Counted from the first letter of the stretch, positions 4,379 through 56,974 are shown. The stretch is DNA of 64,000 bases from Gaiellaceae bacterium (GCA_035652835.1 DASRDA010000003.1:32076-96075); one strand, 5' to 3'. Numbers and translations: made by a program. Notes: generated by a model from the sequence alone, not told the origin.

Positions 4379-7057
4379 CTACGCGGAGACCGCGACCCCA
4401 GACGCTTTCGAGTGGGGAACCCGCCACCGGTGGGTTCCGGAGGCGACGTCGAACGGTGCTCGACCGTCGGGAAGCATGACCGTGGCGAAGGCGTTCGGCG
4501 GCACGACCGCGGTGATTTCGACCGTGTCCCCGCTGAGCGTCCATGCGACCTCGGCTGGGCCGTACGGGCCGTCGTGGCTTGCCCGAGCGTGGGTGAGGCC
4601 ACCTCCGGGACGCGGCGCGACCGCGATGCGACGGAAGCCGGGCTCCGCCGGTCCGAGGCCGGCCACTGTTCGATGGAGCCAGTCCGCAACCGCGCCCAGC
4701 GCGTAGTGATTGAAGGAGGTCATCTGGCCGGGGTTGACGGATCCGTCGGGCAGGAGGCTGTCCCACCGTTCCCAGATCGTCGTTGCCCCCATCGTGAGGG
4801 GGTAGAGCCACGACGGGCACTCCTGTTGAAGAAGTAGCCGGTACGCGTCTTCGGTTGCACCGATGCTGCAGAGCGCGTCGCAGATGAGCGGCGTGCCGAC
4901 GAAGCCCGTGCTGATCCGGAAGCCGTTTTCTCTGACCAGCTCGGTCAAGCGCTCGCCGGCTCGCTGCCGTGCCTGCCCGTCGACGAGTCGGAACGCGAGA
5001 GAAAGCGCATACGCGGTCGGCGAGTCACTGGTGAGGCGGCCCGTCGGAAGCACGTAGGCACTGCGGAAGGCCGTGACGATCTCCTCGTGCAGCCGCGAAT
5101 AGTCGAGGGCGTCGCCGTCGCGACCGAGAACGCGTGCCGTCTTCGCGAGCAACTCCGTCGATCGCGCGAAGTACGCGGTCGCCACGAGCGCGGGGTCGGT
5201 CCGTCCCTGGTCCGGCCGATCAGGCGGCGCGGTCGGGTCCAACCAGTCGCCGTACTGGAAACCGGTGTCCCAGAGCCTGGATGGACCGGCGATTCGCGTC
5301 ACGAGGTCGACCCAGGAGCGCATGCTCGGGTACTGGCGCTCGAGGATCCCGCGGTCTCCCGCGAGCTCGAAGATCCTCCATGGCACGATCACCGCGGCGT
5401 CGCCCCAGGCGGCGGCCGGCGCATCGTGGTCGTGCAGTCCTCGGCGGAGGCCGTCCAGGACTTCGGGCACGACGTTCGGGACCCGCCCGTCGGGGGCCTG
5501 CTCCGCGGCCAGGTCGGCGAGCCACGACCCGAGGAAGCCGGCGACGTCGTAGAGGAAGAGCGCGGTCGGCGAGAAGATCTGGACGTCGCCCGTCCAACCA
5601 AGGCGCTCGTCGCGCTGCGCGCAGTCGGTCGGCACGTCGAGGAAGTTGCCGCGCATGCTCCAGACGACGTTCTCGTGCAAGCGGTTGACCAGCGCGTTCG
5701 AGCACTCGAACGTACCGGTCCGAGCCAGGTCCGAGTGGCAGACCACGGCGACGACATCCCCGGAAGCGAGCTCGCCCGGCCACCCGTCGATCTCGGCGTA
5801 CCGAAAGCCGTGGAACGTGAAGCGCGGCTCCCACACCTCCTCACCGTCGCCGCGCAGGACGTAGCGGTCGGTTGCCGCCGCCTGGCGGAGAGGCCGGACG
5901 CAGAGCTCTCCGTTTTCGAGGATCTCGGCATGGCGGAGCGTGATCGTCCGGCCGCGCGAACCGTGCACGCGGAGGCGTAGGCGGCCGACGAGGTTCTGGC
6001 CGAAATCGAGCAGAAACGTCCCCGACGGGGAACGGCTCACCGATCGGGGCTCGACGAGCTCGATGCGGCGCACCGGGGGGCCCGAGGGCGGAATGAGCGT
6101 CGCCAGGTCCCGTTCGACCAGCTCGACCCCCTGCCAGTCCGTGTCGTCGAAGCCCGGCTCCGCCCACGCCCCCAGCTCCCTGCGAGCGTCGTAGGTCTCG
6201 CCGTCGTACAGGTCGGACGCCAGGATCGGCCCGGTCGCGGCGCGCCACGCGTCGTCGGTGCACACGGTGGTCGTCGTACCGTTCGGGTGGCGTATCTCGA
6301 GCTGGGCCAGCAGTGCGAGCCGGTTGCCATAGATGTTGCGCCGCCCGCCGTGCGGTCCGAGACGGCCGCGAAACCATCCATCTCCGAGGATCACGCCGAT
6401 TGCATTGCGACCGGGTCGGAGGCTGTCCGTGACGTCGATCGTCTGAACGCGCAAGCGGTGCGCATAGCTCGTCCATCCGGGAGCGAGGACGGCGCGGGTC
6501 ACCGGCGCCCCGTTGACGTACGGCTCGTAGACGCCGAGCGCAGTGATGTACAACCGCGCCTCTTCGATCTCCGCCGGCACGTCGAACTCGCAGCGCAGGT
6601 ACGGGCACGGCTGGGGGGTCGTCAGATCCTCTCGCCAGGCGGGGGCGACGAACCGGGCGGTCCAGTCGTTGGGCTCGAGGAGCGGCGCCTCGATGCGGAG
6701 CGGATCGCTCCAGGGCGACGGATCAGACTGACCATCCCACACGCGCACGCGGACCAAGGCGCGCTCGCGGGAGAGCAACGGCTCGAACGGCCAGTCGACC
6801 AGCACGGATTCGGAAGACGCGATCGTTCCCGTGGTCCGGGAGTCGCCTCCTCGCTCGACAGCGATCTCGTACGCGCGCTGGCGCCAGCCCGAAACCGACG
6901 TCGCGATCTTCCAGGAGAGCCTCGGCGCCGGCGAGGCGACGCCGAGGGCCTCGTCTCGCAGCTCCGCGCGCAGCGCGAAGACGGTTGCGGTCGAGCCCAC
7001 CCGCGCAGGCTCTGCCGTCCGGTCGTCGAGCGCTGCTGCATTCGAGCCACCCACCAC
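4379..7057 (-). CDS. alpha-L-rhamnosidase (glycoside hydrolase family 78)
   Basis: The 892-aa ORF shows typical bacterial rhamnosidase N-terminal, catalytic (alpha/alpha)6 and C-terminal regions (PRLSWK..., YITALGVYEPYVNG, DCAQRDERLGWTGD, ECPSWLYPLTMGATTIWERW). GTG start. Confidence 0.85.
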   Translation of the reverse strand: MVGGSNAAALDDRTAEPARVGSTATVFALRAELRDEALGVASPAPRLSWKIATSVSGWRQRAYEIAVERGGDSRTTGTIASSESVLVDWPFEPLLSRERALVRVRVWDGQSDPSPWSDPLRIEAPLLEPNDWTARFVAPAWREDLTTPQPCPYLRCEFDVPAEIEEARLYITALGVYEPYVNGAPVTRAVLAPGWTSYAHRLRVQTIDVTDSLRPGRNAIGVILGDGWFRGRLGPHGGRRNIYGNRLALLAQLEIRHPNGTTTTVCTDDAWRAATGPILASDLYDGETYDARRELGAWAEPGFDDTDWQGVELVERDLATLIPPSGPPVRRIELVEPRSVSRSPSGTFLLDFGQNLVGRLRLRVHGSRGRTITLRHAEILENGELCVRPLRQAAATDRYVLRGDGEEVWEPRFTFHGFRYAEIDGWPGELASGDVVAVVCHSDLARTGTFECSNALVNRLHENVVWSMRGNFLDVPTDCAQRDERLGWTGDVQIFSPTALFLYDVAGFLGSWLADLAAEQAPDGRVPNVVPEVLDGLRRGLHDHDAPAAAWGDAAVIVPWRIFELAGDRGILERQYPSMRSWVDLVTRIAGPSRLWDTGFQYGDWLDPTAPPDRPDQGRTDPALVATAYFARSTELLAKTARVLGRDGDALDYSRLHEEIVTAFRSAYVLPTGRLTSDSPTAYALSLAFRLVDGQARQRAGERLTELVRENGFRISTGFVGTPLICDALCSIGATEDAYRLLLQQECPSWLYPLTMGATTIWERWDSLLPDGSVNPGQMTSFNHYALGAVADWLHRTVAGLGPAEPGFRRIAVAPRPGGGLTHARASHDGPYGPAEVAWTLSGDTVEITAVVPPNAFATVMLPDGRAPFDVASGTHRWRVPHSKASGVAVSA

Positions 7058-7063
7058 TGCTGG

Positions 7064-7077
7064 TTGATACGTTTCAA
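7064..7077. promoter_or_regulatory. LacI-family operator candidate TTGATACGTTTCAA
   Basis: 14-bp palindrome with one mismatch and a central CG, 7 bp upstream of the rhamnosidase GTG and downstream of the lacI-type gene. It resembles the TGAAACGTTTCA-type LacI/RbsR operators. Confidence 0.45.
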
Positions 7078-7096
7078 TCAGCCCGCTGTCAAGCGC

Positions 7097-8107
7097 TCAT
7101 GCGCCAAGAGTCGAGGCGCGGGCAACCAGCTCCGGCTCGAGCAGGACGTTCCGGTGCTCGTGGTTCGGGCTGGTGGCCTCCTCGATGAGGAGCCTCGCCG
7201 CCTGGTATCCGAGCTCGTACGCAGGGTTTCGCACAGACGTCAGCGGAACCAGAGACGTCGCCGCGAAGCGAATGTCGTCGTATCCCACGATCGCGAGGTC
7301 GTGCGGGATCGAGACTCCCTCGGACAACGCCGCGAGCTCGGCGCCGATCGCCATCAGGTCGTTGCCGCAAAAAACGGCCGTCGGGACGCGACGAAGGCTC
7401 AGGAGGCGGTGCATGGCTTCCTCGCCCGCCTCGATCGTCATTGCCTCCATCTCGATCTCGTGCTCGGCTCGAACCTGCACCCCGCGGGCTTCGAGCGTGT
7501 CGAGAAGGCCCTCGCGGCGCTCGGCGCACGGCTTCAGCCGGCGAGGGCCGTTCACCAGGCCGATCCGCTTGTGACCGAGGTCGAGCAGATGTCGCGCGAC
7601 CTGCTGCCCTCCACTCGTGTCGTCGACGGCGACGCTGCACTGGTCCGCGCGCTTGCGGTGACGGTCGAGGAGGACGACGGGGACGCCGTGGCTGCGGATC
7701 TCTTTCAGCCGCCGAGGCGGTGCGCTCGTGGCGGGCGAGATGAGGATGCCGGCGACCCGCTGTTCTTCGAGGAGGCGCAGCGCTTCGTCCTCCCGTGCCG
7801 CGGCGGTCCCGGAGCTCGCCAGCACGACGAGATGGTCGGCTTCGGCGGCGGCGCGCTCCACCCCGCGCGCGACCTCGGTGAAGAACGGGTTGTCGAAGTC
7901 GAGGACGACAAGGGCGATCGACGCGTTTCTTATCCCTCGCAGCTGCCGCGCGGCGTTGTTGCGGACGAAGCCGAGCTCCTCGATCGCCGCCAGGACCCGT
8001 CTTCGGGTCGGCTCGGCGACAAGCTCTGGTCGGTTGAGGACGTTCGAGACCGTGCCGAGTGAGACGGCGGCATGCTCGGCGACGTGTTTGATCGTCAACC
8101 TCGCCAT
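7097..8107 (-). CDS. LacI family transcriptional regulator
   Basis: N-terminal HTH MARLTIKHVAEHAAVSLGTVSNVLN followed by a periplasmic-binding-protein-like sugar-binding core. Start set at the internal ATG 8107 rather than the track start 8179. Confidence 0.9.
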   Translation of the reverse strand: MARLTIKHVAEHAAVSLGTVSNVLNRPELVAEPTRRRVLAAIEELGFVRNNAARQLRGIRNASIALVVLDFDNPFFTEVARGVERAAAEADHLVVLASSGTAAAREDEALRLLEEQRVAGILISPATSAPPRRLKEIRSHGVPVVLLDRHRKRADQCSVAVDDTSGGQQVARHLLDLGHKRIGLVNGPRRLKPCAERREGLLDTLEARGVQVRAEHEIEMEAMTIEAGEEAMHRLLSLRRVPTAVFCGNDLMAIGAELAALSEGVSIPHDLAIVGYDDIRFAATSLVPLTSVRNPAYELGYQAARLLIEEATSPNHEHRNVLLEPELVARASTLGA

Positions 8108-8195
8108 CGCTCGCACACTAACCGTCGTTCCGGTGAGTTCGTACGGCTGCGCGGAGCGGCTTGACAGTCGCAGCGGCACCTAGTAGACCTCGCAC

Positions 8196-8207
8196 TGAAA
8201 CGTTCCA
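8196..8207. promoter_or_regulatory. LacI-family operator candidate TGAAACGTTCCA
   Basis: 12-bp near-palindrome in the 191-bp divergent region between the LacI gene and the ABC substrate-binding gene. TTGACA at 8161..8166 lies upstream as a possible -35. Confidence 0.45.
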
Positions 8208-8298
8208 ATCGTCGCGGTAGGTGCCCCAGGCCGACCCGCGACCCACCGCTTCGGCGATGTCCGCGGACGGACGTCCGTCTTACGACGAAGGAGACGAC

Positions 8299-9636
8299 AT
8301 GGCAGCACGCAAGCAAGGAGGGGTCGCGACGAGGGAACGGCCGGCTGGTCGTTTCGTGGCCGCAGCCGTGGCGGCGGCAGGGGTGCTTCTGGCAGCCGTT
8401 TTCGCCGCCGGAGCGTCGGCCACCGCCGGTACGGCGACGAAGAGCCCAGCCGCGCACATCGACTACCTGTCCGTCGACCAAAACACGGTGTGGGCGCCGC
8501 TGCTCAACGCGATGACGAACAAGTACAAGAGGATCGCTCCAGGTTCGTCGTTCAAGGACTCGACGATCCCGCAGCAGGACCTGAACCAGCGAATCCAGCT
8601 GCTCGCGAGTCAGAACGCGCTTCCGCTGCTCTACAACACGCCGGCGAACGATCTGCTCTTTCAGATGGCGAAGAGGGGCGAGGTCGTCGACGTGGCCAAG
8701 GAGTTCAAGAAGCTCGGCGTGAGCAAGGATCTGGTTCCGGCGGCCGCTGCGATCCTCAAGCAGATCTACAGCGGCAGGGTGCTCTCGCTTCCGCTCGAGT
8801 TCAACATCGAGGGGGTCTGGTACAACAAGAAGATCTTCGCCCAGAACGGCATCACGGTGCCGAAGACGTGGGATCAGCTCGTCGCAGACGCGGCGAAGCT
8901 GCAGGCGAAGGGGATCCAACCGTTCGCGGCCTCGGGCATCCAGGGCTGGCCGATCACCCGGCTGGTCGGGAACCTGATCTTCAGCAAGCTCGGTGCAGAC
9001 GCGCTCGAGAAGATCCAAACCGGCAAGGCGAAGCTGACGGACCCGCAGTACGTATGGGCCGCGCAGCAAGTGGCCGACCTCGGCAAGAAGGGGTACTTCG
9101 GCCAGGGTGTCGCCTCGCTCGACTACGGGCCCGCCGAGGACGTCTTCCTGCAGGGCAAGGCGGCGATGTTCTACATGGGGAGCTGGGCGCTCGCGGACTT
9201 CAACGACCCGACGAAGAACAAGCTCGGTGTCGCGAGCATCGGGTTCTTCCCCTTCCCCGGCGTGAGCGGCGGCAAGGGGCCGTCGGCGCTCGTACCGATG
9301 AATGCCGGGCAGCCGACCTCGATCAATCCGAAGAAGCTCACGCCGGCGAACGAGCTCTGGCTGAAGTACATCGCCCAGCATTACGGAGACGAGGCGATGC
9401 GCCAGAAGGGACAGGTCACGGGCTTCGTCGTCCACAAGTTCCCGGCGAAGCTGTCGCCGCTGACGAAGCTGGTCGTGCACCAGCTGGCGGTGACGAAGAA
9501 CCCGGTCCTGTGGTTCGAGGCGCTCTTCAGCGCGAAGGCGACGACGGTGTCGCAGCAGGATGCGGCGCCGCTCGTCACGGGCCAGATGAGCCCGCAGAGC
9601 TTCATGAGCGCCGTTCAGCAGGCGGTTTCGGGGTAG
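8299..9636 (+). CDS. sugar ABC transporter substrate-binding protein (family 1 extracellular solute-binding)
   Basis: ATG 8299 is preceded by GAAGGAG. It has a signal-like segment (FVAAAVAAAGVLLAAVFAAGASA) and a typical SBP_bac_1-like body. The track ORF starts earlier, at 8221. Confidence 0.85.
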   Translation: MAARKQGGVATRERPAGRFVAAAVAAAGVLLAAVFAAGASATAGTATKSPAAHIDYLSVDQNTVWAPLLNAMTNKYKRIAPGSSFKDSTIPQQDLNQRIQLLASQNALPLLYNTPANDLLFQMAKRGEVVDVAKEFKKLGVSKDLVPAAAAILKQIYSGRVLSLPLEFNIEGVWYNKKIFAQNGITVPKTWDQLVADAAKLQAKGIQPFAASGIQGWPITRLVGNLIFSKLGADALEKIQTGKAKLTDPQYVWAAQQVADLGKKGYFGQGVASLDYGPAEDVFLQGKAAMFYMGSWALADFNDPTKNKLGVASIGFFPFPGVSGGKGPSALVPMNAGQPTSINPKKLTPANELWLKYIAQHYGDEAMRQKGQVTGFVVHKFPAKLSPLTKLVVHQLAVTKNPVLWFEALFSAKATTVSQQDAAPLVTGQMSPQSFMSAVQQAVSG

Positions 9637-9656
9637 CCCATCCCCCGGATGCCGCG

Positions 9657-9691
9657 CCGGGTGCGGGCGTGTGACGCGCGTCCGCACCCGG
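9657..9691 (+). other. intercistronic GC-rich hairpin after the substrate-binding gene
   Basis: CCGGGTGCGG-N15-CCGCACCCGG, a 10-bp stem, lies 21 nt after the SBP stop and 40 nt before the first permease gene. No U-tract. Confidence 0.4.
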
Positions 9692-9730
9692 GCGCGTCGC
9701 ATCCCGGCGTAGAGTCGGAACCGAGCACCG

Positions 9731-10618
9731 ATGGACGTCATCCTGCGAGACCGGCGTGCGATCCTCGTCTTTCTCGCGCCGGCGCTGCTCGTCTACACGG
9801 CGGTGCTCCTCGCGCCGATCGTCTGGTCGCTCGTCTACACGTTCTACGAGGGAAACGTCCTCTCGGGCTTCAAGTACGTCGGCCTGAAGAACTTCCACAC
9901 GCTGATCCACGACCATGCGTTCTGGACGGCGCTCAGGTTCACGCTCGAGTACGGCGCGCTCGTCACCGTCTTCCAGGTGGCGTTGGGCCTGCTGCTGGCG
10001 CTGATGTTCGTCTTCTACCTGCGGCGAGGGTCTGCACTCGTTCGAACCCTCGTCTTCTTCCCCGTCGTCCTCCCGACAGTGGCCGTGGCGCAGCTCTTCG
10101 CGAAGGTGTTCGCGATCGCGCCGCAGTACGGGCTCGTTAACTCGGGGCTCCACGCGGTGCATCTCAACGGCTGGATCCAGGACTGGCTCGGCCGCGGTAA
10201 CACCGCGCTCCTCGTCCTCGTCTTGATGGATGTCTGGCGCTCGATGGGGTTCTACGCCGTCCTCCTCTACGCGGGCCTCGTCGACGTGCCCGAGGAGATC
10301 CTCGAGTCGGCGCGCCTCGACGGCGCATCGGGGCTCCGGCTGGTCCGGCACGTCGTGCTGCCGCTCCTCGGTCCGGTGCTGTTCTCCGCGCTCATCTTCA
10401 GCATCAACGGGACGCTGAAGGTGTTCGACTCCGTCGTCGCACTTACGAATGGCGGCCCCGGGCAGGCGACGACCCCGCTGACGCTCTACATGTTCAACAA
10501 CGCCTTCTCGTACGGCGAGTACGGCTACGCGAGCGCCGTTGCGACAGCGCTTTCGATCCTCTGCCTCCTCATCACGCTGGCAGTCTTCGGCTTTGCACGA
10601 AGAGACGTGACGCGGTGA
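9731..10618 (+). CDS. carbohydrate ABC transporter permease (MalF/UgpA-like)
   Basis: 295 aa, 6 TM helices, EAA-loop-like ESARLDGASGLRLVRHVVLP. Confidence 0.9.
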   Translation: MDVILRDRRAILVFLAPALLVYTAVLLAPIVWSLVYTFYEGNVLSGFKYVGLKNFHTLIHDHAFWTALRFTLEYGALVTVFQVALGLLLALMFVFYLRRGSALVRTLVFFPVVLPTVAVAQLFAKVFAIAPQYGLVNSGLHAVHLNGWIQDWLGRGNTALLVLVLMDVWRSMGFYAVLLYAGLVDVPEEILESARLDGASGLRLVRHVVLPLLGPVLFSALIFSINGTLKVFDSVVALTNGGPGQATTPLTLYMFNNAFSYGEYGYASAVATALSILCLLITLAVFGFARRDVTR

Positions 10619-11505
10619 CGGATGTGTCGTCCGCTCCGCGCCTGCGGCCGCGCGTGCGGCCCCGTCCGCGGCGGTCTCCGCGCCGGCAGGCGCGGACGCT
10701 GATGGCGTGCGTCATCGCGTTCCTGCTGCTGATCGAGCTACTGCCGATCGTCTGGCTCGTCCTGCAGTCATTCAAGCAGGACAGCGAGTTTTCGCTCCAT
10801 CCGGTGTGGGCGCTGCCGAAGGGGTTCTACTGGGAGAACTGGAGACTCGCGTGGTCGACCGGTCACATCGGCACATACTTCAAGAACAGCGTCCTTGCCA
10901 CGTTTCCCGCGCTGTTCTTCATGATCGTGCTGGGGCTGGCCGCCGCCTTCTCGCTCGAGGTGATGAAGTGGCGCGGCCGCAACGGCGTGCTGTTCGTCTT
11001 CGTCGCCGGGCTCCTGATTCCGTTGCAGATGGTGTTGTTGCCGCTGTTCACGGTCTACTTCCACGTCCACCTGATCAACTCGCTCTGGTCGCTGATCATC
11101 ACCTACACGGCGTTCGGCCTCCCGCTGACGATCTTTCTGATGACCGGTTACTTCCGCGCGGTGCCTCGGGAAGTGCTCGAGGCCGCGACGCTCGACGGCG
11201 CCAGCATCTACAGCGCGTTCGCCAGGATCGTGCTGCCGATGGTCTCGAACGCGATCCTCACGGTCGCGTTGGTGCAGTTCTTCTTCATCTGGAACGACCT
11301 GCTCCTCTCGCTGACCTTCATCAGCGACGACAGCAAACGCACGATCCAGACTGGACTCCTCAACTTCACAGGCCAGTATGGCCAGGTCCAGTGGGGGCCT
11401 ACGTTCGCGGCGGTCTCGATGACCGTTCTTCCGACGCTGCTGCTCTACCTCGGCCTCAACCAGCGGGTCATGCGCGGGCTCACGTCGGGGAGCCTGAAGG
11501 GCTGA
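10615..11505 (+). CDS. carbohydrate ABC transporter permease (MalG/UgpE-like)
   Basis: 296 aa, 4-nt overlap with the upstream permease, EAA loop EAATLDGASIYSAFARIVLP. Confidence 0.9.
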   Translation: MTDVSSAPRLRPRVRPRPRRSPRRQARTLMACVIAFLLLIELLPIVWLVLQSFKQDSEFSLHPVWALPKGFYWENWRLAWSTGHIGTYFKNSVLATFPALFFMIVLGLAAAFSLEVMKWRGRNGVLFVFVAGLLIPLQMVLLPLFTVYFHVHLINSLWSLIITYTAFGLPLTIFLMTGYFRAVPREVLEAATLDGASIYSAFARIVLPMVSNAILTVALVQFFFIWNDLLLSLTFISDDSKRTIQTGLLNFTGQYGQVQWGPTFAAVSMTVLPTLLLYLGLNQRVMRGLTSGSLKG

Positions 11506-11518
11506 GGGGAGGCGCCGC

Positions 11519-12616
11519 ATGGCATCCGTCAGATACGAAGGCGCAACGCGCGTGTATCCGAAGGCCGAGCGCCCGGCGGTCGACGCCCTCGACCTGCAGG
11601 TCGGGGACGGCGAGTTCCTCGTCCTCGTCGGGCCTTCCGGATGCGGCAAGTCGACGAGCCTCCGGATGGTCGCGGGGCTCGAAGAAGTCGACGAGGGCGC
11701 GATCTTCATCGGCGACCGCGACGTGACCACGGTCGCACCCAAGGAACGAGATGTCGCGATGGTCTTCCAGTCGTACGCCCTGTATCCGCACATGACGGTG
11801 GCCGACAACATGGGCTTCGCGCTGAAAATGGCGCGCGTTGCCAAGAGCGAAGCGCGCGAGCGCGTTCGCGAGGCCGCGCGGATCCTCGATCTCGAGCAGT
11901 ATCTCGACCGCAAGCCACGCGCCCTGTCCGGCGGCCAGCGGCAGCGTGTTGCGATGGGCCGGGCGATCGTCCGCAAGCCGCAGGTGTTCCTGATGGACGA
12001 ACCGCTGAGCAACCTCGACGCCCAGCTCCGCGTCCAGACGCGGACGCAGATCGCCGCGCTTCAGCGGCGGCTCGGGACGACGACGATCTACGTCACGCAC
12101 GATCAGGTCGAGGCGATGACGATGGGCGACCGCGTCGCCGTCATGTTCGATGGGCGCCTGCAACAGGTTGCTGCGCCAAACGAGTTGTACGCGCGACCGG
12201 CCAACCGGAGGGTCGCCCGGTTCATCGGGTCGCCGGCGATGAACCTTCACGAGGCGGCGGTGGTCGACGGCGCTGCGGAGATCGCGGGTTACCGGATCCG
12301 GCTACCCCGCGAGGTCACCTCGAAGCTGTCCCCGGTGGACGAGGGGAGGGTGGTCCTCGGGTTCCGGCCCGAGGCGATCGACCTGGTCGGAGACGGGGAG
12401 GGCCTTCCCGTCGTGGTCGAGGTCGTGGAAGAGCTCGGCGCGGATGCGTACATGTTCGCCTCGCTTCCCGGCCGCGAGACGGTCGGCGACGTCGGCGACC
12501 TCGTCGCGCGGATCGATCCGCGCAACATCCCGCGAAAGGGACAGTCGGTCACGATCGCGGTCCGCCCGGAAGAGCTCCACGTCTTCTCGCGATCGAGCGA
12601 CGAGCGCCTCAACTGA
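11519..12616 (+). CDS. sugar ABC transporter ATP-binding protein (MalK/UgpC/MsiK-like)
   Basis: Walker A GPSGCGKST, signature LSGGQRQR, Walker B VFLMDEPLS, and a C-terminal TOBE-like regulatory domain. Confidence 0.92.
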   Translation: MASVRYEGATRVYPKAERPAVDALDLQVGDGEFLVLVGPSGCGKSTSLRMVAGLEEVDEGAIFIGDRDVTTVAPKERDVAMVFQSYALYPHMTVADNMGFALKMARVAKSEARERVREAARILDLEQYLDRKPRALSGGQRQRVAMGRAIVRKPQVFLMDEPLSNLDAQLRVQTRTQIAALQRRLGTTTIYVTHDQVEAMTMGDRVAVMFDGRLQQVAAPNELYARPANRRVARFIGSPAMNLHEAAVVDGAAEIAGYRIRLPREVTSKLSPVDEGRVVLGFRPEAIDLVGDGEGLPVVVEVVEELGADAYMFASLPGRETVGDVGDLVARIDPRNIPRKGQSVTIAVRPEELHVFSRSSDERLN

Positions 12617-12645
12617 GCAGCTTCCTCCTCGGCGGCGAGCTCGAG

Positions 12646-13335
12646 GTGCACCGCCTCGGTTTCGGCGCGATGCGGATCTTGGAGGACCCCGCGCAGGGCA
12701 TGCGAGTGCTTCGGCGCGCCGTCGATCTCGGCGTGAACCTGGTCGACACCGCAGACATCTACGGCGCCGGCAGGAGCGAGGAGCTGATCGCGAGAGCGCT
12801 GTACCCGTATCCGGACGATCTCGTCATCGCGACCAAGGGTGGGCTCGGCTGGGGGCTTCAGGAGCGAATCCGCGACGCACGACCCGAGCGCCTGCAGGCG
12901 GCCGTCGAGGCAAGCCTGCGACGCCTCAAGCTCGAGAGGATCGACCTCTACCAGCTTCATCGCCATGACCCGGCGGTCCCGATCGAGGAGTCGATCGGAC
13001 TCCTGGCGAGACTGCGTGATGAAGGAAAGATCCGGTTCGTCGGCATCTCGAATGTCTCGTTGCGCCAGCTGCGACAGTGCCGGTCCGTGACCCCGATCGC
13101 GACGGTCCAGAACCACTACAACCGCGGCTACCTCGTGTCCGAAGATGTTCTCGACGCCTGTGAGCGTGACGGGATCGGGTTCATACCCTGGGCACCGCTG
13201 GGTGAGGGCCTGGGTGACCCGGCAAGCGAGTTGCGCTGGCTGCTCGAGCGTTCTCCCGTGATGCTGCCGATCCCCGGCACGTCCCGAGTCGACCATCTCG
13301 AGCACAACATGCGCGCATCACGATTCGCTGGTTGA
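12646..13335 (+). CDS. aldo/keto reductase (short form)
   Basis: AKR catalytic residues are in context (DTADIYG, ATKGG, YQLHRHD). The start is uncertain: GTG 12646 was chosen, and an in-frame CTG at 12613 overlaps the ATPase stop. This is the tail of track ORF 11641..13335. Confidence 0.75.
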   Translation: MHRLGFGAMRILEDPAQGMRVLRRAVDLGVNLVDTADIYGAGRSEELIARALYPYPDDLVIATKGGLGWGLQERIRDARPERLQAAVEASLRRLKLERIDLYQLHRHDPAVPIEESIGLLARLRDEGKIRFVGISNVSLRQLRQCRSVTPIATVQNHYNRGYLVSEDVLDACERDGIGFIPWAPLGEGLGDPASELRWLLERSPVMLPIPGTSRVDHLEHNMRASRFAG

Positions 13336-28657: not shown

Positions 28658-29743
28658 TTGAGAGGCTTCACCCGGCCGGGCGCTACGGTGCGGGCGGTGG
28701 ACTTCGGGGGTCGCGTCGCGTGGGGCCGGCCGCGGTCTGAGCGCCGGCTGGCGGTCGACCTCGGCACGGCGAACACGGTCGTCTACCGGCGCGGGCGCGG
28801 CGTCGTGCTCTTCGAGCCGTCCGTCGTCGCCGTCGACGAGCGGAGCGGCGAGGTGCTGGCGGTGGGCGAGCCGGCGCGGCGCATGATCGGCCGGACGCCC
28901 GCGTACATCCGCTCCACGAGGCCGCTGCGCCACGGCGTCATCGCCGACTTCGACGTCACCGAGCAGATGCTGCGCGCGTTCATCCGCCGCGCGCTCGGCG
29001 GGCTCGGGCGGCGCGCCGACGTGATGGTGTGCATCCCGAGCGGCGCGACGCCCGTGGAGCGCTCGGCGGTGGAGGAGGCGGCGCGGGCGGCGGGCGCCGC
29101 TCGCGCGTTCCTGATCGAGGAGCCGCTGGCCGCGGCGATCGGCGCCGGCCTGCCGGTCGCCGAGCCGTCCGGTTCGCTCGTCGTCGACGTCGGCGGCGGC
29201 ACCTCCGAGATGGCGGTGACGGCGCTCGGCGGCCTCGTCGTCAGCCACGCGGTCCGCGTCGGCGGCTACGACCTCGACGAGGCGATCATCCGGCTGCTGC
29301 AGGAGGAGCAGCGGCTGCTGATCGGCCAGGAGCGCGCCGAGGCGCTGAAGATCGAGATCGGCGCCGCCGTGTCGCAGGCAGCGGGGCCGGGCACGGCCGA
29401 GGCGGCGGGGCGCGACCTGACCACCGGCCTCCTGCGGCGCGCGCCGGTGACGGCCGACCAGGTGCTGCAGGCGTTGCAGCGCCCGCTCGCGCAGATCGTC
29501 GAGTCCGTGAAGCAGGTGCTCGAGCGGACGCCCCCCGAGCTCGCCGCCGACCTCGGCCGCCGCGGGCTCACGCTCGCGGGCGGCGGCGCGCTCCTGCGCG
29601 GCTTCGACCAGCTGCTCGAGCAGGAGACCGGCCTGCGGGTGACGGTGGCGGACGAGCCGCTGACGACGGTGGCGCGCGGCGCGGGGCAGGCGCTCGAGGA
29701 GCTCGAGCGGCTGACGCCCGCGTCAGGGCAGCGCCGGCGCTGA
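28658..29743 (+). CDS. mreB: rod shape-determining protein MreB (actin-like ATPase)
   Basis: AVDLGTANTVVY, DVGGGTSE, and colinear MreB/Mbl motifs. The TTG start at 28658 is uncertain, with in-frame GTGs at 28688 and 28697. Confidence 0.88.
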   Translation: MRGFTRPGATVRAVDFGGRVAWGRPRSERRLAVDLGTANTVVYRRGRGVVLFEPSVVAVDERSGEVLAVGEPARRMIGRTPAYIRSTRPLRHGVIADFDVTEQMLRAFIRRALGGLGRRADVMVCIPSGATPVERSAVEEAARAAGAARAFLIEEPLAAAIGAGLPVAEPSGSLVVDVGGGTSEMAVTALGGLVVSHAVRVGGYDLDEAIIRLLQEEQRLLIGQERAEALKIEIGAAVSQAAGPGTAEAAGRDLTTGLLRRAPVTADQVLQALQRPLAQIVESVKQVLERTPPELAADLGRRGLTLAGGGALLRGFDQLLEQETGLRVTVADEPLTTVARGAGQALEELERLTPASGQRRR

Positions 29744-49748: not shown

Positions 49749-51185
49749 ATGACCGGCCTCAGCACTCGCACCCGCTGGCTCGCCCTCGTGATCCTCTGCG
49801 TCGGCGACCTGATGATCGTCGTCGACACGACGGTCGTGAACGTCGCGCTGCCGTCGATCCGCAACAGCCTCGGCTTCTCCCAGACGTCGCTGGCGTGGGT
49901 CGTGAACGCGTACATGCTCACGTTCGGCGGGTTCCTGCTGCTCGCGGGCCGGCTCGGCGATCTGTTCGGTCACCGGCGGTTGTTCCTGAGCGGCATCGCC
50001 GCGTTCACCACCGCCTCGCTCGTGTGCGGCGTGTCGACGACGAAGGGGATGCTGATCGCGGCGCGCGCGGTGCAGGGGCTCGGCGGCGCCGTCGTCTCGG
50101 CGGTCGCGTTCTCGCTGATCGTCGTGCTGTTCACCGAGCCGTCGGAGCGTGCGAAGGCGATGGGCGTGTTCGGCTTCGTGATGTCGGGCGGCGGCAGCAT
50201 CGGGGTGCTGGCGGGCGGCGTCCTCACCGACCTCGTCGGCTGGCACTGGATCTTCCTCGTCAACCTGCCGATCGGCATCGCGGTGCTGGCCGCCGGCCTG
50301 CCGCTGCTGCCGGCGGTGCACACGGGCGGCGAGCGGCGGCGCCTCGACGTGGCGGGCGCGGTCGCGATCACGGGCGCGCTCGTGCTCGCGGTGTACGCGA
50401 TCGTGAACGGCAACCAGTCGGGGTGGACCAGCGCGCAGACGCTCGGCCTCCTCGGCGCGGCCGTGGCCGTCGCGATCTCGTTCGTCGCCTGGGAGGCGCG
50501 GATCGCCTCGCCGCTCGTCCCCTTGAGCATCTTCCGCCATCGCAACCTCAGCGTCGCGAACGTCGTCGGCGTCCTCTGGGCCGCCTCGATGTTCGCGCTC
50601 TTCTTCCTGTCGGCGCTGTACCTGCAGCTCGTGCTGCACTACAGCCCGCTCGACGTCGGCCTCGCCTTCCTGCCCGGGAACCTGATCATGATGGCGTTCT
50701 CGCTCGGGCTGTCCGCGAAGCTCGTGATGCGGTTCGGGTTCCGCAAGCCGCTCGCGTTCGGCCTCCTGGTCGCCGCCGCCGCGCTGCTGTGGTTCGCGCG
50801 CGCGCCCGTGCACGGCTCGTTCGTCGTCGACATCCTGCCGAGCATGATCCTGATCGGGATCGGCGGCGGGCTCGCGTTCAACCCGGTGCTGATGGCCGCG
50901 ATGAGCGACGTCGAGCCGCAGGACGCCGGGCTCGCGTCGGGCGTCGCGAACACCGCGTTCATGATGGGCGGGGCGCTCGGCCTCGCGGTGCTCGCGAGCC
51001 TCGCGTCGTCGCGGACGCACCACCTCTCGGCGGCGGGCCACGGGTCGCTCGACGCGCTCACCGGCGGCTACCACGCGGCCTTCGCGCTCGGGGCCGTGCT
51101 CGCCGTCGCGGCCGCGACGATCGGCGGGACGTTCCTGCGCACGCGCACGACGGCGGCCGGAGCTCCCGCCCTCGAGGGCGCGTGA
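49749..51185 (+). CDS. MFS transporter, DHA2 (EmrB/QacA) 14-TM drug:H+ antiporter family
   Basis: 478 aa, 14 TM helices, N-terminal VILCVGDLMIVVDTTVVNVALPSI and motif LGRLGDLFGHRR. Confidence 0.88.
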   Translation: MTGLSTRTRWLALVILCVGDLMIVVDTTVVNVALPSIRNSLGFSQTSLAWVVNAYMLTFGGFLLLAGRLGDLFGHRRLFLSGIAAFTTASLVCGVSTTKGMLIAARAVQGLGGAVVSAVAFSLIVVLFTEPSERAKAMGVFGFVMSGGGSIGVLAGGVLTDLVGWHWIFLVNLPIGIAVLAAGLPLLPAVHTGGERRRLDVAGAVAITGALVLAVYAIVNGNQSGWTSAQTLGLLGAAVAVAISFVAWEARIASPLVPLSIFRHRNLSVANVVGVLWAASMFALFFLSALYLQLVLHYSPLDVGLAFLPGNLIMMAFSLGLSAKLVMRFGFRKPLAFGLLVAAAALLWFARAPVHGSFVVDILPSMILIGIGGGLAFNPVLMAAMSDVEPQDAGLASGVANTAFMMGGALGLAVLASLASSRTHHLSAAGHGSLDALTGGYHAAFALGAVLAVAAATIGGTFLRTRTTAAGAPALEGA

Positions 51186-51189
51186 GCGG

Positions 51190-53850
<2,661 letters not shown>

Positions 53851-55177: not shown

Positions 55178-55570
55178 GAGCCGAGACTAGCGGCGGAGCG
55201 CGTGGCGAGGCTGGCGACGATCGACCCCGACGGGCGGCCGCACCTCGTCCCGATCGTCTTCGCGGTCGACGGCGACACGCTCTACTCCGCGGTCGACCGC
55301 AAGCCGAAGCGGTCGCGCACGCTGCGCCGCATCGAGAACGCGCGGGCGCGGCCCGACGTCACCGTGCTGGTCGACCACTACGACGACGACTGGACGAAGC
55401 TCTGGTGGATTCGCCTGCGCGGTCGTGCGCGCGTGCTCGACGACGGCGCCGAGCGCGAGCGCGCGCTCGAGCTCCTCGCGCTGAAGTACGCGCAGTACCG
55501 CGACGCGCCGCCGGACGGCCCCGTCCTCGCGGTCGACGTCGACGACGCGCGGAGCTGGTCCGGGTCGTAG
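55172..55570 (+). CDS. PPOX-class (pyridoxamine 5'-phosphate oxidase-like) probable F420-dependent enzyme
   Basis: ARLATIDPDGRPHLVPIVFAVDGDTLYSAVD...LWWIRLRGRA. Start uncertain: GTG 55172 overlaps the divergent LLM start by 6 nt, and GTG 55202 is an alternative. Confidence 0.75.
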   Translation: MHEPRLAAERVARLATIDPDGRPHLVPIVFAVDGDTLYSAVDRKPKRSRTLRRIENARARPDVTVLVDHYDDDWTKLWWIRLRGRARVLDDGAERERALELLALKYAQYRDAPPDGPVLAVDVDDARSWSGS

Positions 55571-55576
55571 CGGGAG

Positions 55577-56185
55577 TCAGGCGGCGAGCTGCGCGAATGC
55601 CCGCCGAAAGACGTCGAGCGGCTGCGCGCCCATCACGATCAGGCGGCGGTCGAGCAGGAACGCGGGGATCGCGTTGATGCCGATCGAGAACGCCTGCCGC
55701 GTCGAGCCCTCGACGAGGTCGAGGTAGGCCGACGGATCGGCGATGACGCGCTCGACGCCGTCCGCGTCCAGGCCGACCTCGGCCGCGAGGCGCCGCAGCT
55801 GGTCCGGGTCGCCGATGTCCGTCGCCTCCGACCAGTACGCCTCCATCAGGCGCGCGTGGAACGGCTCGTGCAGTCCCTGCTCGCGCGCGAGCTCCGACAT
55901 CCGCAGCGCGAGCCGCGTGTTCGGCACGACCGCCGGCCGGTCGTACACGAGCCCCGCCTCGGCGAAGCGGTCGCGCAGCGGGTCGTCCTCGCCGGCGCCG
56001 ATCCCGTACCGCCGGTGCAGCTCGGCGAGCGGGATGCCCTCCGGCGGGTACTCCGGGTGGAGGTCGAAGGGGAGCCAGAGGATCTCGGCGTCGAACTCGC
56101 GCCGCGCCTGCTCGGCCGTCACCTGGCCGAGCCGGCAGAACGGTCAGAGGTAGTCGCTCCAGACGACGATCGAGTGAGCCGCCAC
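55577..56185 (-). CDS. DsbA/FrnE-like thiol:disulfide oxidoreductase with an in-frame TGA (56144..56146) at the first Cys of the CxxC motif; candidate selenoprotein or pseudogene
   Basis: The track ORF (start 56122) lacks the active site. Extending the same frame upstream reads GTG-AAHSIVVWSDYL-TGA-PFCRLGQ, which is the DsbA/FrnE N-terminal consensus with TGA in place of Cys. The remainder is intact (202 codons). Confidence 0.55.
56105..56137 (-). other. SECIS-like stem-loop downstream of the in-frame TGA
   Basis: UGCC-G-GCUCGGCC[AGGUGAC]GGCCGAGC-A-GGCG forms 8 bp, a 1x1 mismatch and 4 bp. It starts 7 nt after the UGA, and the loop GGU lies about 21-23 nt after it. Confidence 0.4.
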
Positions 56186-56212
56186 GGCTGCGGTCGATGC
56201 TAGCGCCGCGGC

Positions 56213-56974
56213 TCAGCCGCGCAGATGCTCCGCGAGCCAGCGCAGGACGAACGCGCGGGCGCGAGACGCGCTCGGGTCGCCTTCGACGAGGTCCCAGCCG
56301 TGCGCGCCGCCCGGCAGCAGGAGCAGGTGCTTGTCCGTGCTGCGGGCCGCGGCGAGCACGTGGCGGCTGGTGCTCGCGTCGGCGTACGGGTCGGTGCGGC
56401 TGCCGACGACGAGCAGCGGCAGCGTCAGCCGCGGAAGCGCCGCGTCCGCGTTCGCGAGCTCCGGCTCCCCGGAGAAGTCGACGACCCCCGACGCGAGGCC
56501 GCGCAGCTCGGGGCCCGCCGCGAGCACCGCCGCGCCGCCCAGCGACGCCCCGCCCGCGACGACGCGTCGTGCGCCGAGCCGGCGCAGCTCGCGCACGGCG
56601 CCGACGACGTCGAGGTCGTAGCGGACCGACGCGTTCGGGCCGAGCCGCGGCGACTGGCCGAGGCCGCGCAGGTCGTACGCGAGCACGCGGTAGCCGGCGC
56701 GGGCGAGCCGGCGCGCGAAGCCGAGCCAGCCGCAGTGGGAGCCGGTCGACTCCGGCGCGAGGACGACGCCGCGCCGGCCGCTGCCGTAGACCGCCCCCGC
56801 GAGCACGACGCCGTCGGCGGCCCGGAACCAGAGCGCGCGGGAGTGCACGGTGCCCTGGCCGCAGACCCGGGTGTCGCTCTGAGGCGGCCTCGCCGGCAGC
56901 CCCTGGGCGGCGCGGGCCGCGCCGTCCGCGGAGGCGATCGCGAGTAGCAGGGCGGCGACCATGGTCAGGCGCAC
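56213..56974 (-). CDS. secreted alpha/beta hydrolase
   Basis: Signal peptide MVAALLLAIASA, nucleophile elbow GASLGG, and a C-terminal His context GGAHGW. GTG start. Confidence 0.8.
   Translation of the reverse strand: MRLTMVAALLLAIASADGAARAAQGLPARPPQSDTRVCGQGTVHSRALWFRAADGVVLAGAVYGSGRRGVVLAPESTGSHCGWLGFARRLARAGYRVLAYDLRGLGQSPRLGPNASVRYDLDVVGAVRELRRLGARRVVAGGASLGGAAVLAAGPELRGLASGVVDFSGEPELANADAALPRLTLPLLVVGSRTDPYADASTSRHVLAAARSTDKHLLLLPGGAHGWDLVEGDPSASRARAFVLRWLAEHLRG

Follow-up and report, generated by a model that had tools for sequence, protein, structure and literature searches.

The gene at 55577-56185 on the minus strand of the window (the whole 64,000-nucleotide stretch of Gaiellaceae DNA analyzed here) is, judging from its sequence and that of its relatives, very probably a functional selenoprotein gene whose in-frame TGA is read as selenocysteine (Sec). 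Its product would be a FrnE/DsbA-like thioredoxin-fold oxidoreductase. The original prediction had proposed this selenoprotein reading, which is now supported by the kept TGA, the coding sequence upstream of it, the hairpin that follows it, the Cys-containing homologues, and the Sec machinery of the lineage.

The gene, its in-frame TGA, and its database copies

The features of the gene are as follows, with the evidence for each in parentheses.

55577..56185, minus strand: full putative selenoprotein gene, FrnE/DsbA-like thioredoxin-fold oxidoreductase, 202 codons plus stop (translation, Pfam, PDB homologues)
56183..56185, minus strand: GTG, the likely true start, 13 codons 5' of the TGA (start positions of orthologues)
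56144..56146, minus strand: in-frame TGA at residue 14, predicted to be read as Sec (assemblies, relatives, Cys homologues)
56135..56146, minus strand: predicted redox motif U-P-F-C, TGA CCG TTC TGC (aligned to CPWC of FrnE/SCO1869 and to CPFC/CPWC of the nearest full-length representatives)
56120..56122, minus strand: GTG chosen by gene callers, coding for Val22, in the apical loop of the hairpin (ORF list)
55577..55579, minus strand: terminator of the gene, also TGA (sequence)

Translated from GTG 56185, the gene reads VAAHSIVVWSDYL, the TGA at 56146..56144, and then PFCRLGQVTAEQ...; the minus-strand translation of 56260..55570 gives ...HLRG, a stop, AAALASTAA-V-AAHSIVVWSDYL, the TGA, PFCRLGQVTAEQARREF...AQLAA, and the final stop. 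The TGA is the sole lesion in the 202-codon frame and occupies the position of the first Cys of CxxC. If the TGA is translated as Cys, residues 6-197 of the product match the Pfam family DSBA (PF01323) with E=1.6e-27 and a score of 97 bits (cut-off, 25.6), so the domain extends across the stop codon. Among solved structures, the best matches are SCO1869 (3GL5) and Deinococcus FrnE (5CNW), which align over residues 6-200 at E values of about 4-6e-24 with CPWC opposite UPFC. The original prediction had set the start at GTG 56185 and a TGA at 56146..56144 as the single interruption of 202 codons, noted the 181-aa ORF call, and described a DsbA/FrnE-like protein with the TGA at its first Cys. These coordinates were all recovered on the sequence, the translation contains no other lesion, and the PF01323 match together with the CPWC alignment bears out the identity.

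By exact sequence look-up, the 181-aa product was traced to at least nine contigs of independent assemblies (three NCBI, one ENA, two Logan, plus JGI metagenomes), namely GCA_037025265.1, GCA_037025245.1, GCA_037025205.1, ERZ27279673, SRR5579885, SRR24677575, and JGI 3300027773/3300005532. All six loci fetched from independent assemblies of the window's organism carry the identical TGA with identical flanks. As relatives, we took 80 loci from a GTDB scan with one genome per species, a collection in which the window's species is not included. All 80 come from uncultured Gaiellaceae, Gaiellales, or Thermoleophilia, and their products share 55-84% protein identity with that of the window, the best match reaching 84%. 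The choice between TGA and TGC at this codon, which the original prediction had wanted compared among orthologues, falls on TGA in all 80 species-level Gaiellales genomes retrieved. The frame [IV]WSD[YF][ILT]-stop-P[FWY]CR is present in 79 of the 80 loci, and in these 79 the stop is always TGA, never TAA or TAG. Moreover, WSDY[IL] is conserved 5' of the TGA among the relatives. A disruption beyond the TGA was found in one of the 80 relatives, L018, a Gaiellaceae MAG. Here the TGA is present at 2840-2860 but is followed by a 1-nt deletion (TGAC-GTTC against TGACCGTTC), and the frame shifts; this deletion marks a genuine pseudogene or else an error of assembly.

TGA is also the terminator of the gene in 50 of 80 sequences, among them the window, and the codon is therefore not reassigned genome-wide. 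In these genomes, TGA is an ordinary stop, with the SECIS-flanked one alone predicted to be recoded. Two variants of the codon were observed. One is a Cys form with TGC (L101, 1030-1035; protein P0070, 72% identical), and the other is GGA, encoding Gly in GPWC (L102, 650-655; protein P0010, a single metagenome contig). The latter would be without a nucleophile and could be a sequencing error or a dead copy. Besides P0070, more distant homologues have Cys at the TGA position, with C-P-[FW]-C aligned; the alignment suggested in the original prediction accordingly places CPFC/CPWC opposite UPFC. UGA kept in orthologues and Cys present in homologues is the pattern of a Sec/Cys pair, by which selenoproteins were recognized in PMC1088965.

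The start codons were compared among 80 sequences (the window and 79 loci). An ATG or GTG lies exactly 13 codons 5' of the TGA in 59 of them, and some start codon precedes the TGA in 79; in several loci, the preceding stop is merely 13-18 codons 5' of the TGA. Gene callers begin at GTG 56122 instead, from which the ORF track obtains 181 aa. This GTG is kept as GTG in only 16 of the 80 sequences, and the first possible start 3' of the TGA is scattered from 5 to 100 codons downstream. By homology search, more than 100 database clusters were recovered at 80-89% identity, nearly all of them exactly 181 aa with the same cut point, and every database copy among the closest matches listed is shortened to about 181 aa and lacks the active site. 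The 181-aa public protein is an artefact that arises when annotation starts the gene at the next GTG. The sole NCBIfam match is NF041057 (Rcas_1661 family), at 31.1 bits against a cut-off of 190 and over the C-terminal half only. The gene is not a member of this family, and because the match falls below the cut-off, the NCBI annotation pipeline has no model by which to recognize it as a selenoprotein gene.

A scan of the window for TGA-interrupted frames with coding-like GC3 on both sides returned three other sites, at 49970-49972, 29723-29725, and 8874-8876 (minus strand). All three resemble boundaries between neighboring genes in the same frame and lack a redox motif. Elsewhere in the window, an ORF of 883-886 aa (51190-53850, minus strand) lies three genes downstream of the selenoprotein gene; it has no Pfam family on record and keeps its position in 5/5 assemblies whose fetched locus extends across it. 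Additionally, a stretch of lower G+C content (4379-13335; 0.61-0.70 against about 0.745 over 14-64 kb) contains a sugar-utilization cluster, which may have been acquired horizontally.

4379-7057, minus strand: alpha-L-rhamnosidase, sugar-utilization cluster
7097-8179, minus strand: LacI-type regulator, sugar-utilization cluster
8221-9636: ABC solute-binding protein, sugar-utilization cluster
9731-10618 and 10615-11505: two permeases, sugar-utilization cluster
11641-13335: aldo/keto reductase, sugar-utilization cluster

The hairpin 3' of the TGA

Directly 3' of the UGA, the mRNA can form a stem-loop of the bacterial SECIS-like type with a small G-containing apical loop.

56105..56137, minus strand: SECIS-like hairpin (fold and comparative data)
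56132..56125 with 56117..56110, minus strand: upper stem, 8 bp, beginning 11 nt after the UGA
56124..56118, minus strand: apical loop AGGUGAC, 7 nt (fold)
56137..56134 with 56108..56105, minus strand: lower stem, 4 bp (fold)

The fold is the one drawn in the original prediction, with its 8-bp stem, AGGUGAC loop, and 4-bp lower stem at 56137..56105, and the 61-nt piece containing it has a minimum free energy (MFE) of -31.3 kcal/mol. The accompanying caution about GC-rich hairpins was well founded. Compared with shuffled sequences, the stability is not significant (z-score -1.7; 13 of 200 shuffles equally stable), and no Rfam SECIS model matched, either over the whole window at gathering thresholds or at the site at E<=10. 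Because the hairpin is unremarkable by itself at high G+C content, its significance comes from the comparative data alone.

In the relatives, for which the original prediction had asked about conservation, the hairpin is held at a fixed distance from the TGA. The region from the TGA to +54 aligns without gaps in 78 sequences. RNAalifold returned no consensus structure for this 78-sequence alignment, and the RNA evidence used here consists of pair counts, per-sequence folds, and a positional MFE profile. Among 77 distinct orthologous sequences, the six core pairs form in 78-91%. The stem cells pair in 76%, against 18-50% in controls whose 3' partners were slid by 1-3 columns. At pair 16-36, 37 sequences have CG and 8 have GC, and four standard pair types are seen at pair 15-37. 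Clear compensatory covariation is confined to these two outer pairs of the upper stem, and it is modest because the stem overlaps conserved codons (L-G-Q...T-A-E).

Folded one by one, all 78 sequences form a hairpin, with an apical loop that begins 21-27 nt from the U of the UGA. In 56 of them, the loop starts at nt 23 and is 7 nt long, and a G lies within the first two loop nucleotides in 62. The hairpin also survives amino-acid change, in other sequence or register, in L056 (L-A-Q-P-I-A-T), L064, L067, L035, L040, and L076, while in Q-x-L lineages the stem is lengthened by CAG-CUG pairing. Furthermore, when 30-nt segments were slid along the 80 genes, those at +9 and +12 after the TGA were the most stable of 192 positions, with mean MFE values of -16.1 and -15.5 kcal/mol, respectively, against a gene-wide mean of -8.2 (sd 2.0). 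The +12 segment ranks first in its own gene for 19 genes, and its median rank is 4. The Cys variant L101 retains the hairpin, which is thus not exclusive to Sec forms; its retention there is as expected of a recent switch.

The same profile has a second stability minimum, in the 30-nt segments at +30 to +39 after the TGA (mean MFE about -13.4). In many relatives (e.g., L023-L033, +30 to +70 nt), this corresponds to the palindrome CGCCGGTTCGGCG (R-R-F-G-A), and the window's version at about 56077-56116, GGCGCGAGTTCGACGCC, is weaker. This second element may extend the SECIS, or it may have arisen by chance from the codons present.

Sec machinery in the lineage and alternative readings of the UGA

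A selA-selB-tRNA-Sec cluster was found on the contig of one relative, L016 (DASREW010000021.1, Gaiellaceae), 6.3 kb upstream of its TGA-containing orthologue.

L016, 140-1738: selA (Pfam SelA, E=5e-133)
L016, 1739-3397: selB (GTP_EFTU, SelB beta-barrel, and SelB winged-helix domains)
L016, 3609-3700: tRNA-Sec (ARAGORN; Rfam RF01852, 54.6 bits against a gathering score of 47)
L016, 10031: TGA of the orthologue (motif frame)

SelA homologues more than 80% identical are numerous, and those that NCBI names are labeled Gaiellaceae. Through SelA, the same cluster was retrieved on eight further contigs of uncultured relatives; it was confirmed by ARAGORN in seven (L087, L089, L095, L098, L099, L100, and L147) and, by way of the overlapping piece L124, in L148. 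Seven loci share a tRNA-Sec at 97% identity, and an exact 42-nt match to it occurs in 41 contigs of JGI metagenomes. The SelB proteins of the relatives, at 547-565 aa as called, are short, and Pfam recognizes only their last winged-helix domain. In the eight contigs, the cluster lies downstream of a conserved MoaD/MoaE fusion, an M50 peptidase, and a LOG (lysine-decarboxylase-like) gene, with a VanW-domain gene sometimes intervening. None of these sel-cluster or tRNA-Sec loci carries the DsbA-like gene, so L016 is the sole same-contig case.

The 64-kb window itself contains no tRNA gene and no Rfam match, and tblastn with SelA and SelB of L016 found neither selA nor selB in it. The seven SelA matches looked up all led to records other than the window's assemblies. 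One SelA, P0208, which differs from P0412 solely in an M/V start residue, is found together with the window's exact protein in ERZ27279673 and JGI 3300027773; however, its contig differs in composition (GC 0.70 against 0.745; tetranucleotide distance 0.030 against 0.014 within the window) and is therefore not counted as the same genome. The sel contig closest in composition to the window, L145, could not be traced to it by exact look-up or further homology search. Collectively, the search for Sec machinery called for in the original prediction succeeded for the lineage, with selA, selB, and tRNA-Sec in L016 and the eight contigs, and yielded nothing in the window or linked to its genome. We infer that selABCD are present in the window's own genome.

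In the mechanism that we propose, the mRNA hairpin 11 nt after the UGA would act as a bacterial SECIS and recruit SelB-GTP-Sec-tRNA(Sec) to the ribosome, so that the UGA at 56146..56144 would be decoded as Sec and termination avoided. The attacking active-site residue would then be Sec, in U14-P-F-C17, and the enzyme may cycle between the selenol/thiol and the selenenylsulfide (U14-C17) forms while reducing or isomerizing disulfides. Sec insertion itself, SelB binding to the hairpin, and the substrates of the enzyme are what we infer from this scheme.

Three other explanations of the interrupted frame were weighed. The UGA might be read through without Sec, a near-cognate tRNA inserting Cys or Trp or the Sec pathway delivering Cys, which would give a full-length protein that is not, or only partly, a selenoprotein. 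We regard this as improbable. It would agree with the failure to find Sec machinery in the window or linked to its genome, and the TGC (L101) and GGA (L102) variants indicate that other residues are tolerated at least transiently. Across 80 species, however, TGA alone occupies the site, never TGC or TGG, which is hard to explain if Cys or Trp were intended; moreover, the hairpin is conserved at SECIS distance, and selA, selB, and tRNA-Sec occur in the lineage and adjoin the orthologue in L016.

Two separate products, an upstream ORF of 13 codons and a 181-aa DsbA-like protein without CxxC starting at GTG 56122, are very hard to credit. Gene callers do give the 181-aa protein in more than 100 clusters, and the GTG exists in the window, yet only 16 of 80 orthologues have it, and the starts after the TGA are scattered over 5-100 codons. 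The peptide upstream of the TGA, which can be aligned to solved structures, makes up the first beta-strand and the active site of the DsbA fold, Pfam coverage begins at residue 6, and a thioredoxin fold deprived of its first strand and CxxC would be non-functional. The probability of a pseudogene (TGC to TGA) or of a sequencing or assembly error at 56144 is close to nil: although TGA is one base from TGC and L018 has its 1-nt deletion just after the TGA, the same TGA recurs in six independent assemblies and in 80 species-level genomes whose proteins are 55-84% identical to that of the window, no second lesion interrupts the window's frame, and the protein sequence encoded 5' of the TGA is conserved. 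A pseudogene, an assembly error, and a shortened protein after a short upstream ORF are ruled out by the conservation pattern, because none of them can yield a conserved TGA together with an upstream start and scattered later starts. Decoding of the UGA as Sec remains the reading that we prefer.

Relation to known DsbA-like proteins and selenoproteins

The gene product has the FrnE-type DsbA fold, in which CxxC lies in the N-terminal part and a signal peptide is absent, except that the first Cys would be replaced by Sec. SCO1869 (3GL5, Streptomyces coelicolor) and FrnE (5CNW and 5CP1, Deinococcus radiodurans) are DsbA-fold proteins like that of the window, and in all of them there is no space for a signal peptide before the first beta-strand. 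FrnE is cytoplasmic. In the window's protein, 13 residues precede the active site and leave no room for a signal peptide, and the protein is therefore probably cytoplasmic as well. FrnE and SCO1869 carry CPWC with Cys, whereas the window's protein is predicted to have Sec. They are also longer (239-260 residues), and the window's protein stops where their C-terminal extension begins, its residue 202 aligning to residue 218 of the 260-residue FrnE chain. The FrnE tail bears an extra CxxxxC motif; the window's protein has no such tail.

In a search of 1.84 billion cluster representatives with the Cys form P0070 as the query, the Gaiellales proteins all fell into one cluster at 50% identity (P0241, shortened). 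The next representatives are at most 44% identical to P0070, are full length, and have CPWC or, like P0070 itself, CPFC (P0242, P0244, and others). Six other representatives, P0277, P0282, P0325, P0332, P0372, and P0352, are 32-38% identical to P0070 and start immediately downstream of the CxxC position; these may represent additional Sec clades shortened by gene callers, or fragments.

Gaiellales are a high-G+C order of soil actinobacteria, abundant and mostly aerobic. The Actinobacteria were already known as a phylum with many selenoprotein families (PMC1794560). Our literature search found no paper linking Gaiella or Gaiellales to a DsbA-like or any other selenoprotein. The DsbA-like UxxC selenoprotein (COG2761) was among the families discovered in Sargasso Sea data in 2005 (PMC1088965). 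Reports from Anaeromyxobacter, Desulfovibrio, Desulfotomaculum, and others followed (PMC1794560). A 2016 survey counted 41 organisms with it (PMC5029168), and a 2026 review enters it as "DsbA-like protein form 1" (PF01323, UxxC; PMC13188914). Since DsbA-like UxxC proteins have been known since 2005, the Gaiellales genes would constitute a new, previously shortened clade of a known family.

On this reading, a whole order of uncultured soil actinobacteria would join the users of the DsbA-like selenoprotein, and a systematic annotation error would be corrected, as the closest public copies listed lack the active site. In addition, about 80 natural variants of one in-frame bacterial SECIS-like element at about 74% G+C become available, which is useful for SECIS models and selenoprotein finders. 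A further, tentative proposal, which taken as a whole we consider rather unlikely, is that an ancient Cys-to-Sec switch produced a distinct FrnE-like clade retained by practically all Gaiellales species sampled (80 of the 80 retrieved), possibly sustaining the Sec trait. According to a published rule, FdhA or SelD maintains the Sec-decoding trait (PMC1794560). If a DsbA-like protein rather than formate dehydrogenase or SelD did so here, it would be an exception to that rule (PMC1794560) and would suggest an unrecognized selenium dependence of a major soil lineage.

With regard to recoding, the mechanism would be of the known bacterial SECIS/SelB type, and we see nothing new revealed in it. The hairpin resembles that of E. 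coli fdhF in being embedded in the coding sequence directly 3' of the UGA and in having a loop G near the 5' side. The minimal E. coli fdhF SECIS must sit 11 nt from the UGA, and the upper stem in the window begins at this same spacing. In contrast to that of fdhF, however, the window's hairpin has no evident bulged U, and the two share no sequence similarity. Among DsbA-related families, NF041057 (Rcas_1661 thioredoxin-like (seleno)lipoprotein) also includes selenoproteins. The closest known system is the DsbA-like form 1 family, which has the same Pfam domain as the window's gene, Sec for the first Cys of CxxC, widespread Cys homologues, and a UGA-adjacent hairpin with a small G-containing apical loop, as here; the Gaiellales proteins differ from it in forming their own 50%-identity cluster.
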